Source of the DNA: Peribacillus frigoritolerans
GTDB taxonomy: Bacteria; Bacillota; Bacilli; Bacillales; Bacillaceae
Assembly (NCBI RefSeq): GCF_004358755.1
Contig: NZ_SMZY01000001.1
Coordinates: 1,206,796 to 1,238,795 of the forward strand
Direction: 5' to 3'
Length of the DNA: 32,000 nucleotides
Shown here: positions 1,276 through 24,501 of the stretch, in pieces
Layout of the letters: every line of letters begins with the position of its first letter
How positions within the stretch are numbered: position 1 is the first letter of the stretch
Notes under the pieces: generated by a model
Database searches by the model: none
Told to the model about the DNA's origin: nothing
The model's input: the letters and a program-made list of their open reading frames with translations, nothing else
Position numbers and translations under genes: made by a program

Positions 1276-2073
1276 TTATCTCCTCCCTTTGGAACGAATA
1301 ACTATAAACGTTTCTTCATCCTCATCATCTTCATATTTATAGGAATCATGATATTTTGCTTTTTCAGGAACTTGTTCCTTTACCCTCTCTGGAGTGAGTC
1401 TTTTTTCCTTTTCTCCTATCACTGGTTTTTCCTGTTTTTCTTGTTTCTTTTCCTTTTTTTCTAATTCTTGTTTTTCCTTTTTATCTTCCTTTGTTGCTTT
1501 AGCAGGCTCTTTTTTGTCTTCTTTCAGTTCTTTAAGCGAATCTTTTATTTGTTTTTCCTCTTCCTTTAATTTTTTTTCTTTCTTGACTTCCTTAAGAGAT
1601 TCTTCCACAGACTTTACCGCTTCAACATTTTCTTCTTTTAAAACTTCATGCTCAATTTGTGTACACTCTTCATGTCTACTGGGTTCTTCATCAGAATAGA
1701 GACATTTCTCATCTTCATATTCATCTGTACAGTAATCTTGATGAGAATGAATTTGTTCATCGACACACTTGCATTCAGTATCAAAAAAAATGACTTCACA
1801 ATGTTCCTTGACTTCTTCTAGGAGCATTTCTACAAGAACCTCTTTATTCATAGCCAGTTTCAATGTATTGTTTAAATCCTTTTTTAAATGAATCAGAAAT
1901 TCAGATGAAACAGCATTTTTTATTTCTTTCATTGCAATGAGCTCTTCATAGATCGCTTCAGATAAAGCATGATTTAAAGTTAAAACCGATTCAAGGAACC
2001 TATTAATGTCCCGGCATTTACAGTTGTCACAGGCTCCCGTGCAGCATTCTTTTCCATTGTTATAAGAAGACAC
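1276..2073 (-). CDS. Bipartite low-complexity protein with a Cys-rich N-terminal half and a Glu/Lys-rich C-terminal half; candidate spore coat/exosporium protein
   Basis: GTG start with GGGGGA 5 nt upstream. N-terminus reads KECCTGACDNCKC, with further ECKC and C-containing acidic stretches. The C-terminal 120 aa or so are almost only K/E (KEVKKEKKLKEEEKQIKD...). Function is inferred from composition and neighbours only. Confidence 0.6.
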   Translation of the reverse strand: MSSYNNGKECCTGACDNCKCRDINRFLESVLTLNHALSEAIYEELIAMKEIKNAVSSEFLIHLKKDLNNTLKLAMNKEVLVEMLLEEVKEHCEVIFFDTECKCVDEQIHSHQDYCTDEYEDEKCLYSDEEPSRHEECTQIEHEVLKEENVEAVKSVEESLKEVKKEKKLKEEEKQIKDSLKELKEDKKEPAKATKEDKKEKQELEKKEKKQEKQEKPVIGEKEKRLTPERVKEQVPEKAKYHDSYKYEDDEDEETFIVIRSKGRR

Positions 2074-2389: not shown

Positions 2390-3199
2390 ATGTCTGTAAA
2401 TCCGTTCAGAAGAACAACATCTACAAATCATTGTGACGCTACAAACGTCAGACCAAATCCAATTCCAGCATCGCCGGATCCAATTATTAAGGTTCCAGTG
2501 TTGCTGAATGAAGTATCTGTGCAAATTCCAATGCATGCAGAAATTGAATTTCCAGCAGGTGAACGCGTTTTAGAAATCAAAACAATCAAAAAACGCACGT
2601 ATGTAACACAATGCCGTCTTGTTAACCGTGCTCCTGCCCCTGGCGACACACTTGCTAATTACAGAGCAAAACTTTTCCTTAGCGGTTTTGTGCGCAAAAA
2701 CATTCAATACGCTTCAAATCCAGTTGCAGATGCTGCTGGTGAAATTTTATCAAGAATCAATTCATTAACTGTTGAAGTTCCATTCGACTGTGTAGCAGAA
2801 ATTACAAATTTCAGAAATTTCCCTGTTGGACCATTCACTGATTCTCGCGATGAATTTGGTTATTTAATCTCTCAGCAGCTTCCAAATGACAGAAGCTTTG
2901 CTGCAAAAGACCGTTTAGATGGTACAGATCTTTCTCAGTTCCATCAAATCAGTACAGAATTCTACAACGAATTGCCTTTCTGTGAACTGATCAGAGCTGA
3001 TATCATTGAATTCGATGAGTCTTTAGACCGAGTTCCATTCCCTGCAGCTGGTGGTACAGGAGAACAAGAAATCGTAGGCGAAGGTACATTCACACGCCTT
3101 TCTGAAAAAATGGTATTAGACTTAACACTAAAACTATTGCAAAAACAACAAGTCAGAGTTGATTCTTTAGGGCCAGCACCAGGTGGACTCGAAGGCTAA
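2390..3199 (+). CDS. Beta-rich protein, paralog A of a duplicated pair; possibly DUF3794/SPOCS-like, candidate spore coat protein
   Basis: AGGAGG lies 9 nt upstream of the ATG. Long blocks are shared with ORF 3411..4385 (VPVLLxEV, LEIKxIKKR, TQCRLxNR, LFLSGFVRKNIQYASNP, SLTVEVPFDCVAEI, SQFHQISTE, PFCELxxADIIEFDE, SEKMxLDxTLKLLQxQQ). The family name is from memory and is unverified. Confidence 0.75.
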   Translation: MSVNPFRRTTSTNHCDATNVRPNPIPASPDPIIKVPVLLNEVSVQIPMHAEIEFPAGERVLEIKTIKKRTYVTQCRLVNRAPAPGDTLANYRAKLFLSGFVRKNIQYASNPVADAAGEILSRINSLTVEVPFDCVAEITNFRNFPVGPFTDSRDEFGYLISQQLPNDRSFAAKDRLDGTDLSQFHQISTEFYNELPFCELIRADIIEFDESLDRVPFPAAGGTGEQEIVGEGTFTRLSEKMVLDLTLKLLQKQQVRVDSLGPAPGGLEG

Positions 3200-3351: not shown

Positions 3352-3378
3352 ACAGGCGAATGCCTTTTGCATATGATA
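3352..3378 (+). promoter_or_regulatory. SigK-type (late mother-cell) promoter candidate for paralog B
   Basis: AC (3352-3353), 16-nt spacer, CATATGATA (3370-3378). This fits the published AC-16/17-CATAnnnTA pattern and lies 33 nt before the ATG. It is a short motif, so a chance match is possible. Confidence 0.35.
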
Positions 3379-3410: not shown

Positions 3411-4385
3411 ATGTCTGTTGAGCCATTTCCGAGAAGCACTTCCATGCAGCACTGTAAAGCAACGATCGTAGATCCATCAGCAACTCCCTCAACTGGTATC
3501 ATTATCAAAGTACCAGTCTTGCTGCAGGAAGTCCGAATAGAAATTCCAGTACATGCTAAAATCACTTTTCCTAAAGGAGAAAAAGTTCTTGAAATTAAAG
3601 AAATTAAAAAAAGGGTTTTCTTAACACAGTGCCGCCTTATTAACCGCGAGGGTGCAGCCTCAGGCCAGCTATTTTTGAGCGGGTTCGTTCGCAAGAATAT
3701 TCAATATGCCTCAAATCCAAAAGAGGAATGCAAAGGATCTGTTTTATCTTCTATTAAATCACTGACTGTTGAGGTGCCGTTTGATTGTGTTGCTGAAATT
3801 GAACGTTTTCTTACTCCTCCAGTAGGTCCTGTAAGTGATACGAAAGAAGAGTTCGGTTTTTTTATTGCACAACCGTTAGGAATTGGTTTTCCTGAAAAGG
3901 ATCAATTATTGTCGAATGACATTTCTCAATTCCATCAAATAAGCACGGAACATTTTAATGAAATGCCTTTTTGTGAACTCGTTAAGGCTGACATTATTGA
4001 ATTTGATGAAGCACTGAACCGCAGCATCAAGAAAGAAGAGTGCATGTGTATTGAAAGCTGTGAAGAAAAAGAGATCATTCTTGAAATTCCGCTTGAAGAC
4101 TACATGGAACTGTGCAGGGAAGAAGATGGATGTGAATGTGAAGAATGTAAAAAGGAGCATGAATTTAAGCATTCAAGCTCGTCTAAACGAAAATCGTTTA
4201 AAGAACTATCTGACAAACTCAGTATGGAAATCATGGCATATGAAGAAGATTTTGAAAAGAAAGATGTCAAAAAAGATCATCGAAAAAAAGACGCAAAGAT
4301 TGAAACCTTTACTGAATTATCAGAGAAAATGATCCTGGATATTACACTTAAGCTGCTTCAAAGGCAGCAAATACGCCTAGGGTGA
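3411..4385 (+). CDS. Beta-rich protein, paralog B, carrying a Cys/Glu/Lys-rich insertion of about 94 aa; candidate spore coat protein
   Basis: AAGGAGG lies 9 nt upstream. It is collinear with 2390..3199 except for residues 205-298 or so (nt 4023-4304): SIKKEECMCIESCEEKE...CREEDGCECEECKKEHEFKH...KKDVKKDHRKKDAKIE. Confidence 0.75.
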   Translation: MSVEPFPRSTSMQHCKATIVDPSATPSTGIIIKVPVLLQEVRIEIPVHAKITFPKGEKVLEIKEIKKRVFLTQCRLINREGAASGQLFLSGFVRKNIQYASNPKEECKGSVLSSIKSLTVEVPFDCVAEIERFLTPPVGPVSDTKEEFGFFIAQPLGIGFPEKDQLLSNDISQFHQISTEHFNEMPFCELVKADIIEFDEALNRSIKKEECMCIESCEEKEIILEIPLEDYMELCREEDGCECEECKKEHEFKHSSSSKRKSFKELSDKLSMEIMAYEEDFEKKDVKKDHRKKDAKIETFTELSEKMILDITLKLLQRQQIRLG

Positions 4386-4398
4386 ATTTCACACTACC

Positions 4399-4430
4399 AA
4401 AGCACCTATAACAGGGTGCTTTCATTTTTT
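4399..4430 (+). terminator. Rho-independent terminator after paralog B
   Basis: AAAGCACC pairs with GGTGCTTT, with a T6 run shortly after. Confidence 0.65.
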
Positions 4431-4710
4431 GCGTAAAAATTAGCTAATTACATAGGATTCTATGAAAATTGGATGAATGAATCACTTCATCTAACCATAC
4501 GAAAAAAATATTTCTTAATAAGATAGTATAAGGGATCAGTCACAGATTACATGATTCTTTCTTTGCAAGATTTGAATGAGATATCCGGCAGCTATGTGCA
4601 GCGATCGTGATACGTTTGTCTGATAGATCAAGACGTCTTCTTGCAGGGTTGGATTTATTATCTAATGATGACTGCACCTTTAGTATGGATTGATGAAAGA
4701 GGTGAAAAAT

Positions 4711-5253
4711 ATGTGCCAGAAACATGTTGAAGTTCGTTTAATCTGCAAGCGTGTTAAACATTCGGGCGAACACTGTCCATGTGACCATTGCAAAAAACAC
4801 GAAGAAAAATGGATCTGTAAATGCGTCAAAGTTTGTGATGAGTGGAAGAAAGAAGAAAAGCACCATTGCGGATGTGATCACTGGAAAAAAGAAGAAAAGC
4901 ACCATTGCGAGTGTGGTTGCTGGAAACAAGAAGAAAAGCATCATTGCAGGTGTGAGTACTGGAAAAAAGAAGAAAAGTACCATTGCGAGTGTGATCACTG
5001 TAAGAAAGAAGAAAAGAATCATTGCAGGTGTGACGATTGGAAAAAAGAAGAGAAGCACCATTGCGAGTGTGATCACTGTAAGAAAGAAGAAAAGCACCAT
5101 TGCATGTGTGATAAGTGCAAGAAAAAAGAGAAGCACCATTGTAAGTGTGATAAATGCAAGAAGAAAGAGAAACACCATTGTAAATGTGATAAATGCAAGA
5201 AAAAAGAGAAACATCACTGCAAATGTGACAAATGCAAAAAGAAGCATAACTAA
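4711..5253 (+). CDS. Cys/His/Lys/Glu tandem-repeat protein (about 180 aa; 13-aa HHCxCD-type repeats); candidate metal-binding or disulfide-crosslinked spore surface protein
   Basis: The track ORF starts at TTG 4690, but ATG 4711 has AAGAGGTG 6 nt upstream. The protein is essentially CDxW/CKKEEKHHCx repeated 10.7 times. No Ser or Thr occurs in the repeats. Confidence 0.7.
   Translation: MCQKHVEVRLICKRVKHSGEHCPCDHCKKHEEKWICKCVKVCDEWKKEEKHHCGCDHWKKEEKHHCECGCWKQEEKHHCRCEYWKKEEKYHCECDHCKKEEKNHCRCDDWKKEEKHHCECDHCKKEEKHHCMCDKCKKKEKHHCKCDKCKKKEKHHCKCDKCKKKEKHHCKCDKCKKKHN
4834..5253 (+). repeat. In-frame 39-nt tandem repeat, 10 full copies plus one truncated copy
   Basis: Units begin with TGTGA at 4834, 4873, 4912, 4951, 4990, 5029, 5068, 5107, 5146, 5185 and 5224, an exact 39-nt spacing read from the sequence. 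Confidence 0.95.
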
Positions 5254-5333
5254 AACTAATGACAATTTAATCGCTAAGCTGCTTATTACGAATTGGGTGC
5301 AGCTTGTTTGACCTTTAACTTGCGATATTTTTT

Positions 5334-5362
5334 AAGACTTGTGTAAAAGCAAGTCTTTTTAT
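5334..5362 (+). terminator. Rho-independent terminator after the repeat-protein gene
   Basis: AAGACTTG (5334-5341) pairs with CAAGTCTT (5350-5357), followed by a T-run. Confidence 0.7.
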
Positions 5363-5446: not shown

Positions 5447-7117
5447 ATGGAACAAAAAAGGCAATTTGATCACATTTTAATCTATTTATGTATACTGGCC
5501 ATCGCTTTATATGTAGCACCGCTTTTTATCCTTAATGAAAATGCGCACATCCGCGTTCATGATAATCTGGATTCTAATCTTGCCTGGTATAAAGTGCTGA
5601 CGGAAAATGGGTACCTTTTAAGCGGGCTGAATGAAACTTTGCCGCAAATTATAAACGGACTGCCCAGAAATGCTCTTGGTTCTGAATGGAATCTTCAAAT
5701 CTGGCTGTACAATTGGTTCCCGACAATGACAGCTTATGCATTCTCTCAATCAATCACAAGAATTTTTGCCTTTTTGGGCATGTATCTTCTCTTGAAGGAC
5801 CATTTCCTTAAAGAAAGACAATATTGGTTTATTACTGCAGGAACAGCCTTAACATTTGCCCTGACCCCTTTCTGGCCCCAGGGAATGCTCAGCACACTGG
5901 GAATGCCTCTTGCTTTATGGGCATTTTTAAATATCAGAAATGGAAATCGTTATTGGCTCAGTATGGCAGTCTTAACTTTGCTCCCTTTTTACTCAAGCTT
6001 TGTTTTAGGTTTTTTCTTTTTTTTAACTGCTATAGGCATGTTATGGATCATGGATGTGATGAAAAAAAAGAAGTGGAATCTGCCTTTTTTGATTTCCGTC
6101 GGATACATGATAGTTGTCTATTGTATAGTTGAATATCGGTTAATCTATTCCTTTTTATTCTCATCTGAACCAAATAGCCGTGATGAGTACTTTCATGCGA
6201 GGCTGCCATTATGGCGGGTCATAAGGCTTACATTTAAGAACTTTGTATTAGGACATACACATGTCATGACCGTTCATGGCTTGATTATCCTGCCTGTCAC
6301 TCTGTTTGCTCTATACATAATGATCCGAAAAGGAAGATGGAAAACAGAAAAACCGTTTGTTTTTTTATTCATTTTAAATTTTTGTTTATCAGCCTGGTAT
6401 GCTTTCTGGTTTTATAAGGGCTGGCTTCCTTTAACGGAACGTTTTCATTTCTTGGATACCTTTAACTTTGCAAGATTCCACTTCTTGCGGCCTATCATTA
6501 TTTATTTGGGTTTTGCTTTGGGGTTAAAGATTTTATACAGTGAATTCCCCAAAAAGGGGGTAATCTGGGCGTGTATTCTAGCTCAAGTAATAGTGCTCGG
6601 CCTCTTTAATGATGAAATTATCTATCAAAAGAAACCATCTGTAAAAGAGTTTTATGCAGAGGAACAGTTTGCAGAAATTAAAGATCATATCGGCAAGCCA
6701 GTTGAGGATTATAGGGTTGCAAGCCTCGGACTGCATCCTGCCATCGCTCAATATAATGGATTCTATACTCTCGATACGTATAACAACTTTTACCCGCTCT
6801 CGTATAAATACCAATTTCGGAAAATCATCGAAAAGGAACTCAGTAAAAATAAAAGACTGCGGATTTATTTTGATGAGTGGGGAGGAAGATGCTATCTCTT
6901 TAGCAGCGAGCTTGGGAAAAAGTATATGTTTCCTAAAGATTCAACTAATCGAATTATGGATTTTGATCTGAATACGATACCATTTAAAGAAATGGGCGGT
7001 GAGTATATTTTTTCAAGCTTGCCGATTGAACAGCCGGAAAAGAACCATTTATTCCTGGATAAAGTATTTCATTCCGAGGAATCGGCTTGGAAAATTTATC
7101 TCTATAAGGCCAAATAA
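5447..7117 (+). CDS. Polytopic membrane protein (556 aa); candidate GtrC/GT-C-type glycosyltransferase, resembling my memory of the DUF6044 family
   Basis: GAGGTG lies 5 nt upstream. It has many hydrophobic helices in the N-terminal 400 aa or so and a soluble C-terminal domain. It sits directly upstream of GT2 and GtrA genes. Function is inferred from topology and context. Confidence 0.6.
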   Translation: MEQKRQFDHILIYLCILAIALYVAPLFILNENAHIRVHDNLDSNLAWYKVLTENGYLLSGLNETLPQIINGLPRNALGSEWNLQIWLYNWFPTMTAYAFSQSITRIFAFLGMYLLLKDHFLKERQYWFITAGTALTFALTPFWPQGMLSTLGMPLALWAFLNIRNGNRYWLSMAVLTLLPFYSSFVLGFFFFLTAIGMLWIMDVMKKKKWNLPFLISVGYMIVVYCIVEYRLIYSFLFSSEPNSRDEYFHARLPLWRVIRLTFKNFVLGHTHVMTVHGLIILPVTLFALYIMIRKGRWKTEKPFVFLFILNFCLSAWYAFWFYKGWLPLTERFHFLDTFNFARFHFLRPIIIYLGFALGLKILYSEFPKKGVIWACILAQVIVLGLFNDEIIYQKKPSVKEFYAEEQFAEIKDHIGKPVEDYRVASLGLHPAIAQYNGFYTLDTYNNFYPLSYKYQFRKIIEKELSKNKRLRIYFDEWGGRCYLFSSELGKKYMFPKDSTNRIMDFDLNTIPFKEMGGEYIFSSLPIEQPEKNHLFLDKVFHSEESAWKIYLYKAK

Positions 7118-8709: not shown

Positions 8710-9146
8710 AAAAAAATTGTCCCCAGACGAAATCTAAGAAGAACCTGCGATTTTATCTTTCCTGAAAAAGAAACAAAATGTCTAAAGACTTAAATGAAAA
8801 TCAAAAATTTATCTATGGGGCAGGGACTGATCTGCTGAGCAGAAGTTTCGGCTTCAAGCTTAATGGTGAATCCCGGCAGAATGATGCAAAACCTCCAGAC
8901 ACATTAAACTTCCTTTGTCCAGAATGCTCAAATAGAATTAAAAATTAATAAAACTATGTTCTAAATAATCATTTATAAACCTATTTCACTCAGACCACAT
9001 TCCAAATATCCCTCAATAATGATACCTCTAAAAGTTTACAAAGGGGCAAAAGACTCATTTTTCAACGTAAAGCAGGTATTTTTCTAAAAACATTGAATTA
9101 TTAGAACATAATGCAACCAAAATATCTTCAGGAGGAGATGTTTCGA

Positions 9147-9515
9147 ATGGGTGAGAAAAGAAGTGCGAGCGGATTTTTATTAAAACAGAGAGCTTTTCTT
9201 AAACTCTATATGATCCGAATGACGGAACAGGATAAGCTGTATGGGTTAAAGCTGCTGGATGTGCTCCGTGATGAATTCAGAAGATATGGATACAGACCAA
9301 ATCATTCAGAAGTATATAAATCGCTGCATGAATTGATAGAAGACGGAGTATTGAAGCAGGTTAAAAGAAAGAAAGAGGGAATGAAGCTGCAGGAGGTCGT
9401 TTATTACAAGTTCGAGGATTATGAAAAAGCAAAGCTATATAAAAAACAGCTGAAGGCAGAGCTTGATCGGTGTCAAAAACTGCTGGATAAAGCTCTGCAG
9501 GATAATTATTCATAA
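9147..9515 (+). CDS. PadR-like winged-helix transcriptional regulator
   Basis: LYGLKLLDVLRDEF...YRPNHSEVYKSLHELIEDGVLKQVKRKKEGMKLQEVVYYKF matches the PadR wHTH pattern, followed by a coiled C-terminal helix. The start is uncertain: ATG 9147 lies 10 nt after AGGAGGA, and the track gives ATG 9111. Confidence 0.65.
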   Translation: MGEKRSASGFLLKQRAFLKLYMIRMTEQDKLYGLKLLDVLRDEFRRYGYRPNHSEVYKSLHELIEDGVLKQVKRKKEGMKLQEVVYYKFEDYEKAKLYKKQLKAELDRCQKLLDKALQDNYS

Positions 9516-10304: not shown

Positions 10305-10790
10305 ACGAGGGTCTATGTTTCCTCTTTTTCCGGATTTGAACCGTATTGTGGAATCATACGGGGCCTATGTTTCCTCTTTTTCCAGATTTGAACCGTATTG
10401 TGGAATCATACGGGTCTATGTTTCCTCTTTTCCCGGATTTGAACTGTATTGTGGAATCATACGGGGTCTATGTTTCCTCTTTTTCCGGATTTGAATTGTA
10501 TTGTGGAATCATACGGGTCTATGTTTCCTCTTTTCCCGGATTTGAACCGTATTGTGGAATCATACGGGGCCTATGTTTCCTCTTTTTCCAGATTTGAACC
10601 GTATTGTGGAATCAAACAGGGTCTATGTTTCCTCTTTTTCCGGATTTGAATTGTATTGTGGAATCATACGGGTCTATGTTTCCTCTTTTTCCAGATTTGA
10701 ACTGTATTGTGGAATCAAACAGGGTCTATGTTTCTTCTTTTTCTGATTTTGCTCGATATTGTGGAATCATACAGCCCCTATGATTCCCAG
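10305..10790 (+). repeat. Spacer-less tandem array of a non-coding unit alternating 51 and 52 bp, nine full copies plus a degenerate tenth
   Basis: The anchor CTATG occurs at 10313, 10365, 10416, 10468, 10519, 10571, 10623, 10674, 10726 and 10778. Consensus unit: GGGTCTATGTTTCCTCTTTTTCCGGATTTGAACCGTATTGTGGAATCATAC(G). Each unit contains the inverted repeat CCGTAT-N9-ATACGG. Confidence 0.95.
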
Positions 10791-24210: not shown

Positions 24211-24232
24211 GAACAAAAAAATATGATTCTTT

Positions 24233-24501
24233 AAAAGTGCCTGAAAAATATCAGGATAATAGGGAAACCGGTTAAAATCCGGTGCAGCCCCCGCTACTGT
24301 AAGCGCAGATTCCATTGAGATGCCACTGACTTTTTAAGTTGGGAAGGTTCAATAGAAAATGAAGCGTGAAGCCAGGAGACCTGCTTTTAAAGATTGATTG
24401 CTTGTTTTTCGGTGGGAAAAATAAGTCAGGTATCCTTAGTGTGTAAGAATTTGCTTATTAAAGGCCTTGACTGACTTCCTATTCAGTTCAAGGTCTTTTT
24501 T
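24233..24501 (+). promoter_or_regulatory. Cobalamin (AdoCbl) riboswitch with a terminator expression platform
   Basis: The conserved core is read directly: AGGGAAACCGGTTAAAATCCGGTGCAGCCCCCGCTACTGT ... GCCACTG ... GGGAAGG ... AGCCAGGAGACCTGC. A hairpin (24463-24495) plus T6 follows, immediately upstream of cobO. Confidence 0.9.

Follow-up and report, generated by a model that had tools for sequence, protein, structure and literature searches.

A repeat-built cysteine- and histidine-rich protein encoded beside csxC genes in Bacillaceae, and its possible place in the spore envelope

The gene considered here lies on the forward strand of a 32,000-nucleotide stretch of Peribacillus frigoritolerans contig NZ_SMZY01000001.1 (assembly GCF_004358755.1), referred to below as the window, and encodes a small protein consisting mostly of cysteine, histidine, lysine and glutamate (the Cys/His protein). 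Two paralogous genes of the CsxC family, csxC1 and csxC2, stand directly upstream on the same strand, and a DUF6044-GT2-GtrA operon, probably a three-component glycosylation system, lies downstream, followed by rtp. The Cys/His gene is organised as follows.

4696-4704, forward strand: ribosome-binding site AAAGAGGTG, 6 nt before the ATG at 4711
4711-5253, forward strand: coding sequence of the Cys/His protein, 180 residues, stop codon included, based on codon-position and synonymous-substitution tests
4711-4833, forward strand: conserved N-terminal module of 41 residues, MCQKHVEVRLICKRVKHSGEHCPCDHCKKHEEKWICKCVKV, based on alignment, shuffle tests and cross-validated hidden Markov models (HMMs)
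4834-5223, forward strand: ten full units of 39 nt (13 residues), based on Tandem Repeats Finder and comparison of the units
5224-5250, forward strand: eleventh, truncated unit, CDKCKKKHN, based on the translation
4399-4422, forward strand: terminator-like hairpin after csxC2, a 9-bp stem followed by a T-run
5334-5357, forward strand: terminator-like hairpin downstream of the Cys/His gene

Because terminator-like hairpins are found on both sides, the gene is monocistronic. The sequence GAGGTGA stands ahead of the start codon in all orthologues; an alternative in-frame ATG at 4693 is conserved as well, with no good Shine-Dalgarno sequence seen before it on reading. The 180-residue product contains 27.8% lysine, 19.4% cysteine, 15.0% histidine, 14.4% glutamate, 6.1% aspartate and 3.3% tryptophan, cysteine and histidine together making up 34%. 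It is basic (54 lysine and arginine against 37 aspartate and glutamate residues, a net charge of about +17 and an isoelectric point of 8.8) and very hydrophilic, with a grand average of hydropathy (GRAVY) of -1.83.

Most of the protein is a tandem array; in Tandem Repeats Finder it extends over 4834-5244 with a period of 39 nt, 10.6 copies, 82% matches, no indels and a score of 339-440. The units encode CDxWKKEEKHHCx and run from CDEWKKEEKHHCG to three C-terminal copies of CDKCKKKEKHHCK, each 13-residue unit offering two to three thiols and two to three imidazoles with lysine and glutamate spacers between them. An earlier sequence-only reading of this DNA had described ten such repeats and a truncated one, drifting towards CDKCKKKEKHHCK, and had noted the restricted residue alphabet and the absence of serine and threonine from the repeats; both descriptions are accurate, the whole protein containing one serine and no threonine. 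The same reading had taken the last three full units to be nearly identical in DNA and hence recently expanded, and here the data say otherwise. The three units encode the same peptide while their DNA differs at 4-6 of 39 nt, every difference being a synonymous third position, and the same three C-terminal units are found in the other strains compared, namely L081 (GCA_031194915.1) and Metabacillus idriensis DSM 19097 (L001) and NRS-1149 (L002). As the terminal units differ only synonymously and are common to the strains, the comparison indicates an array that is old relative to strain divergence and under purifying selection, not one of recent expansion. A survey of repeat number across these strains, which the earlier reading had proposed, gave 9 units in NRS-1149, 10 in the window, 10 in L081 and 11 in DSM 19097, with no frame-breaking change; one unit of the DSM 19097 array is exactly one codon shorter, and the copy-number differences are in frame in all four strains.

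The array can be read without a stop in three of the six frames. When the first 162 nt are compared between the four strains, the variable sites number 15 at third, 4 at first and 1 at second positions of the codons in the Cys/His frame (chi-square p = 0.0003), and a comparison of the paralogous units shows variation at 11 of 13 third, 5 first and 3 second positions. The orthologue of the more distant Metabacillus sp. L083 differs over the 41 N-terminal codons by 9 synonymous and 10 non-synonymous changes in this frame, and by 5/15 and 0/18 in the two shifted frames. Since strain and unit substitutions fall mainly on its third codon positions, they show the Cys/His frame to be the coding one, and together with the ribosome-binding site and the terminators they uphold the earlier assumption that this open reading frame (ORF) is a real gene.

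Two alternatives bear on this point. The first is that the product is that of the other open forward frame (4751/4782-5311; shifted-frame ORF at 4782-5311), a serine- and threonine-rich, CotG-like kinase substrate with GKKKKSTIASVIT repeats. That frame is open for 186 codons, has a composition superficially like that of CotG, and is the gene call on record both for the closest NCBI assembly, GCA_031194915.1 (176 residues, rich in lysine, serine and threonine, with GKKKKSTIASVIT-type repeats), and for Jeotgalibacillus sp. S-D1, GCA_004358665.1 (104 residues, L084 6366-6680). However, it begins at a GTG before which no Shine-Dalgarno sequence is seen on reading, it takes the strain substitutions on its first and second codon positions, and it shares neither the silence of the unit-to-unit differences nor the cross-genus N-terminal homology, both of which are found in the Cys/His frame only. 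Gene calls on Logan assemblies, including a run from a strain the same as or nearly identical to that of GCA_031194915.1, also take the Cys/His frame, and we regard a shifted-frame product as highly improbable. The second alternative, non-coding minisatellite DNA that is open in several frames by chance, could draw on the three open frames and on the protein searches that came back empty (below), but it is contradicted by the ribosome-binding site, the terminators, the third-position bias, the diverged units encoding identical peptides and the non-repeat N-terminus conserved across genera, and we give it next to no credence.

A word-indexed search with the whole protein against 5.8 billion proteins returned 541 candidates, none at E <= 0.001, and phmmer, run exhaustively over 1.84 billion representatives, found 9 weak hits, the six inspected being unrelated, apparently eukaryotic repeat proteins. 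Pfam and PDB, searched up to E = 10, and NCBIfam, searched up to E = 0.01, had no match, in agreement with the sequence-only reading, which could place the protein in no named family. Nine orthologue and variant sequences were looked up by exact match, and the protein collection contains none of them; nor is there any record of the window protein, whichever start codon is used, or of the antisense ORF. In a local control HMMER readily detected the M. idriensis orthologues when these were supplied, so their absence from the collection is an annotation gap and not a problem of sensitivity. The Cys/His protein thus represents an undescribed family of narrow distribution, represented at present neither in the family libraries nor in the protein collection that the searches covered.

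The genes upstream, on which much of the interpretation depends, are the following.

2390-3199, forward strand: csxC1, CsxC family (DUF7852); NF045794 CsxC_fam at 9.6e-71, 238 bits against a cut-off of 135; Pfam PF25250
3411-4385, forward strand: csxC2, CsxC family, with a C-terminal tail rich in lysine, glutamate and cysteine; NF045794 at 4.2e-67, 226 bits against a cut-off of 135; Pfam DUF7852
1276-2073, reverse strand: divergent gene for a lysine- and glutamate-rich protein of 265 residues with a cysteine-bearing N-terminus, from ORF and translation

CsxC was identified in the exosporium of Clostridium sporogenes (PMC4942563), and a 2026 preprint reports that it forms a crystalline layer, rich in cysteine and probably stabilised by disulfides, which is situated between coat and exosporium (bioRxiv 10.64898/2026.09.03.749163). 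Homologues of CsxC2 (464 in number) are widespread in the Bacillaceae, many of them named 'CsxC family protein', and orthologues of the Cys/His gene were reached through the genomic contexts of these homologues and synteny. Among 80 species with the DUF6044 gene, the csxC block stands beside it only in M. idriensis, whose DUF6044 protein is 96% identical to that of the window. The order [lysine/glutamate-rich gene, opposite strand]-csxC1-csxC2-[small Cys gene] is found in L083, L084/L085 and L091, and Guptibacillus L089 has the order csxC1-csxC2-small Cys ORF.

Metabacillus sp. (L083): orthologue of 162 residues, 13-residue units xWKKDEKHECKCD, flanks as in the window
Jeotgalibacillus sp. S-D1 (L084/L085): orthologue of 165 residues, units such as EKKEHSSRCGNC, beside genes for an AMP-binding enzyme and an enolase-superfamily protein
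J. proteolyticus (L091): orthologue of 131 residues, no repeats and a tail almost free of cysteine, flanks different again
Guptibacillus hwajinpoensis (L089): candidate of 88 residues with three [FL]ICKC motifs; the record (GCA_001039475.1, L089 5101-5367) has no gene call there

In these four cases beyond the window the small Cys gene is directly downstream of csxC2, and the flanks range over major facilitator superfamily and DUF6044 genes, AMP-binding and enolase-superfamily genes, genes for an ATP-binding cassette transporter and an extracytoplasmic function sigma factor, and a recombinase gene. The module therefore recurs in Metabacillus and Jeotgalibacillus amid unrelated flanks, and in Guptibacillus with borderline support. 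The divergent lysine- and glutamate-rich gene is present beside csxC1 in L083 (58% identity over 54% of the query), in L084 (43% over 34%) and, on reading of the sequence, in L091. Its 265-residue product in the window has no Pfam or NCBIfam match, the gene carries short internal repeats of 21-24 nt at 1402-1486, and the recurrence of its position makes it a probable further member of the module, likewise uncharacterised.

What links the small Cys proteins is their N-terminus, which follows the pattern M[CS]xKHxE[IV][RK][LIF][IV]CK[CR]...[DE]KW[IV]C[KE]C over about 45 residues and carries the two motifs [LIV][IV]CK[CR] and W[IV]C[KE]C. Shuffle tests on this part gave z values of 22 between the window and L083, 5.1 between the window and L084, 5.4 between L084 and L089, and 2.2 between the window and L089. 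In cross-validation against 22,894 ORFs, an HMM built from Metabacillus only found J. proteolyticus at E = 2.6e-5, and one built from Jeotgalibacillus only found every Metabacillus copy (5.5e-8 to 4e-3). The three marks by which we propose to define the family, that is, the N-terminal module, the place downstream of csxC2 and a shared upstream element, occur together in Metabacillus and Jeotgalibacillus. The Guptibacillus protein was always the top non-member match at E 0.04-0.17, which is not significant alone, and its position and promoter agree with the family. Because alignment, shuffle tests and reciprocal HMMs connect the Metabacillus and Jeotgalibacillus copies at this end, the N-terminus is best described as the conserved, family-defining part, and the repeat tail, including the HHCxC cluster, as lineage-specific. 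The sequence-only reading had pointed to that cluster as a plausible metal site or disulfide node. The idea that it is the functional core is not supported, as its pattern is not kept in the tails of L083 (HH replaced by HE), L084 (EKKEHSSRCGNC units) and J. proteolyticus, whereas the N-terminal module is.

The region upstream of the genes supplies a further set of shared elements.

3352-3378, forward strand: exact sigma-K-type consensus promoter of csxC2, AC-N16-CATATGATA, in full ACAGGCGAATGCCTTTTGCATATGATA, from a pattern scan
4470-4497, forward strand: imperfect palindrome TGGATGAATGAA-TCAC-TTCATCTAACCA, a candidate operator beside the promoter -35, from an alignment over four genera
4499-4525, forward strand: candidate sigma-K-type promoter of the Cys/His gene, AC (4499-4500), N16 and AATAAGATA (4517-4525)
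4515-4533, forward strand: second conserved upstream block, TTAATAAGATAGTATAAGG, from the alignment over four genera

The sigma-K consensus of B. subtilis consists of AC, a spacer of 16-17 nt and CATAnnnTA. Of 8 csxC2 loci, drawn from different genera, 5 show an exact match 57-81 nt before the gene, the background frequency of the pattern being 0.005 per 200 nt. The motif GGCGAATGC is also seen upstream of csxC1. Upstream of the Cys/His gene the pattern scan of the window found no exact sigma-K consensus, and a sigma-70 scan found no promoter there. Reading the sequences against the alignment shows an aligned AC-N16-AATAnnnTA in L083, L084 and L091 as well, and Guptibacillus L089 carries an exact AC-N17-CATAAACTA. 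Matches to the relaxed sigma-K pattern number 4 per 32-kb strand, or about one per 8 kb. The neighbouring palindrome has the consensus TGGATnnATGA-N5-6-TCATnTAnCCA, and both Jeotgalibacillus loci (L084 and L091) have arms that are perfect over 10-11 bp; it occurs once in the window, where 0.05 chance matches are expected, and may be the operator for a regulator. Taken with this adjacent candidate operator, AC-N16-AATAAGATA may reasonably be put forward as a promoter used late in the mother cell. The CATACGAA box was also read by eye as a sigma-E or sigma-G element and set aside since the spacing and -35 matches are weak, and a Fur/Zur-like AT-rich box near 4662-4676 was rejected as it is not conserved between strains. 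An Rfam scan of leader and gene matched no family, including no known metal-sensing riboswitch, and folding of the putative 5' leader did not differ significantly from shuffled controls (z = -1.4).

With moderate confidence, we suggest that the Cys/His protein is a repeat-expanded accessory component of a CsxC-type spore-envelope layer. This reading is drawn from the scores of both upstream genes, which lie far above the CsxC-family cut-off, and from the recurrence of the module across genera together with sigma-K-type promoters, exact for csxC2 and near-consensus for the Cys/His gene. The earlier guess of a spore-surface protein is thereby strengthened by its csxC neighbours, the recurring block and the promoters, and membership of the CotG-like group is not supported (below). 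The mother cell would produce the protein at a late stage of sporulation, along with the two CsxC-family proteins encoded upstream, for incorporation into the coat, interspace or exosporium; no hydrophobic or signal-like stretch is seen on reading its sequence, which together with its hydrophilicity fits assembly from the mother-cell cytoplasm. Its N-terminal module would probably dock it onto a CsxC-type lattice or another coat partner, and the repeat tail would act as a positively charged spacer bearing thiols and imidazoles. Following mother-cell lysis and oxidation, these could enter into cooperative disulfide cross-links with the cysteine-rich CsxC proteins, which we consider the most economical mechanism; metal-bridged cross-links at the His/Cys clusters are also possible, and coordination of this kind would be the more novel outcome. 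The protein would then work in a CotG-like manner, thiol and imidazole chemistry taking the place of CotH-dependent serine phosphorylation.

The metal-bridged version can be taken further. The units could be metal-templated nodes in which HHCxC(D)(H/K)(W/C) clusters, alone or shared with the cysteine-rich tails of the CsxC proteins, hold zinc, copper or nickel, a mortar of metal and disulfides hardening the CsxC layer. We regard this as a doubtful elaboration. If true, the spore surface would be a high-capacity metal sink, cross-linked by a chemistry that differs from those already known (disulfide, dityrosine, transglutaminase and phosphorylation). That the orthologues preserve the ligand pattern so poorly speaks against a precise metal site.

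Metal binding could alternatively be the task of a cytoplasmic protein. Metallothioneins of the SmtA/BmtA type and Helicobacter Hpn are proteins rich in cysteine and histidine, with Cys-x-Cys motifs, low complexity and no stable predicted apo-fold. The Cys/His protein resembles them in all these respects, and a metal-buffering or storage protein of this sort, its HHCxC(D)(H/K)(W/C) units binding zinc, copper, nickel or cobalt, would make the link with spores incidental or limited to the loading of metals into the spore. The share of cysteine and histidine, the Cys-x-Cys spacing with four to five potential ligands per 13 residues, the lack of a signal-like stretch and a low AlphaFold confidence compatible with a metal-dependent fold are all in keeping with such a role. 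It differs from the known proteins, however, in its strict 13-residue periodicity with lysine and glutamate spacers and in its spore-envelope gene context, and it matches no metallothionein or other metal-binding family in the Pfam and PDB searches. Neither a metal-sensing riboswitch nor any other known RNA element is present in its leader, its conserved neighbours are csxC genes and none for metal efflux or for a regulator adjoins it, and the ligands change from one orthologue to another (HE in L083, EKKEHSSRCGNC in L084, and nearly no cysteine in J. proteolyticus). A storage function is thus unlikely, though it retains some real chance. Other roles for a small, basic, cysteine-rich protein, such as binding of nucleic acids or other polyanions in the spore, a regulator or the precursor of an antimicrobial peptide, would suit the net charge, the extreme hydrophilicity and the lack of a family assignment in any search. 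No leader peptide, modification enzyme, transporter or immunity gene is found nearby, though, the csxC genes are the only conserved genomic partners, and a fast-changing repeat tail is typical of structural surface proteins and not of specific binders, so that we hold these roles to be improbable.

Several points should nevertheless make for caution with regard to the spore-envelope interpretation. The link with spores is drawn from the naming of the family, from synteny and from promoter motifs. The promoter proposed for the Cys/His gene is one mismatch away from the -10 element CATAnnnTA, and its use would give a leader of about 180 nt. The csxC runs at the loci L086, L088 and L090 are without the small Cys gene, so that it is dispensable for CsxC function. 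The unconserved cysteine and histidine pattern of the tail argues against a single precise geometry of cross-links or metal sites, and the AlphaFold2 model of the single sequence, made without an alignment (mean predicted local distance difference test, pLDDT, 40.8), is uninformative, being compatible with disorder or with a cofactor-dependent fold.

Among known spore proteins, the closest analogy in design is with CotG. CotG-like proteins are non-homologous between species, modular, built of repeats and positively charged, and their genes are organised beside, and divergent from, cotH; for CotG itself the charged repeats have been proposed to serve as spacers (PMC9765600). CotG has 19 repeats of 6 and 7 residues, or 13 per pair (Giglio 2011, Saggese 2016, via PMC9765600). 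The Cys/His protein is likewise small and modular, apparently derived from a mini-gene amplified into tandem units, here of 13 residues; it shares the strongly positive net charge and the predicted disorder, both proteins appear to be encoded among spore-surface genes, and copy number and sequence evolve fast, with members non-homologous between species. The sequence-only reading had called it a cysteine/histidine analogue of the CotG type. The positive charge agrees with membership of the CotG-like group, but linkage to cotH in the window and serine-rich kinase-substrate repeats were not found. No match to CotH (PF08757) was obtained among the 30 ORFs of at least 110 residues in the window that were scanned against Pfam (36 are listed, the other six being overlapping or alternative-frame ORFs), so the statement in the same reading that no cotH lies nearby is correct. 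The immediate neighbours of the Cys/His gene are instead csxC2 and the gene for the DUF6044 membrane protein, and its conserved partners are csxC genes and not cotH or cotB. Its repeats carry no phosphorylatable serine or threonine and have a cysteine and histidine chemistry in place of one of serine, arginine and lysine. They also continue to the stop codon, giving the 41-residue N-terminal module and 10.7 units with no C-terminal module, whereas the repeats of CotG-like proteins lie between modules.

A second comparison is with the cysteine-rich, self-assembling envelope proteins CsxA/CsxC of C. sporogenes, CotY/ExsY of Bacillus and CdeC/CdeM of C. difficile, for which cooperative disulfide cross-linking is the proposed mechanism (bioRxiv 10.64898/2026.09.03.749163; PMC6101409). 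The Cys/His protein shares their very high cysteine content and presumed mother-cell synthesis, its gene is directly beside two of the CsxC family, and like CdeM it is small and restricted to a narrow lineage. Unlike them it has no SPOCS, DUF3794 or DUF7852 domain and no sequence similarity (no match to NF045794 or to PF25250/PF12673), and in contrast to proteins of the CsxA/CsxC type it is predicted to be disordered and not a folded lattice-former, is built of repeats and contains 15% histidine and 28% lysine. It may therefore be placed in this functional class by composition and context only. The tail of csxC2 does contain the peptide CECEECKKEH (4131-4160), which resembles the repeat unit HHCECDHCKKEEK, and its DNA matches the end of the array at 21 of 26 nt (score 18, the highest among shuffles being 17). 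This is suggestive of a common origin, but the match is too short to claim one and a composition effect is also possible.

Similar small ORFs were seen at other loci. In Bacillus sp. J33 (L021 11415-11687, reverse strand) and Cytobacillus oceanisediminis (L066 11201-11404, reverse strand), small ORFs rich in cysteine and histidine lie by the DUF6044-GT2-GtrA operon, convergent to GtrA; they have strong ribosome-binding sites and terminators and repeats such as four HHCSCKRCFPDF units, and share with the window protein its composition and an MCHxC[IV]E start. The J33 protein gave a shuffle z of 4.7 against the window protein. The N-terminal HMM recovers neither, and they were rejected as members; neither has a match in the protein collection searched, and a database search with the J33 ORF found nothing. 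In Fictibacillus sp. b24 (L086), three tandem csxC-family genes are followed by small Cys ORFs at 6185-6475 and 6765-7019 and then by several glycosyltransferase and sugar-epimerase genes, which may be another spore-surface locus. The two ORFs have no Pfam or NCBIfam match, and a guess that they are CotZ-like was not confirmed by these libraries. Elsewhere in the window, an intergenic tandem array of nine 52-bp units (10309-10772, Tandem Repeats Finder score 722) sits between a 202-residue ORF after the replication-terminator-protein gene rtp (9111-9515) and a 355-residue ORF with a borderline match to the AAA_30 ATPase domain; in M. idriensis DSM 19097 it has 5.9 copies at the same place (L001 13065-13371), so that its copy number varies. 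An ordinary cobalamin riboswitch (24218-24402, Rfam RF00174, 131 bits) lies upstream of genes for cobalamin salvage and transport.

These observations suggest that such proteins are systematically overlooked, as gene callers either choose an open frame that is shifted or leave the gene out; with a lysine about every three residues, the Cys/His protein would probably also escape tryptic proteomics. If the interpretation advanced here is true, an undescribed family of small proteins travels with CsxC-type gene pairs in several genera of the Bacillaceae, and would represent a second, chemically different version of the modular repeat design of CotG, in which thiols and imidazoles replace kinase-dependent serine phosphates. 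To our knowledge no CsxC-family protein has been studied in aerobic spore-formers, and the gene described here gives a handle on the role of this family in these organisms.

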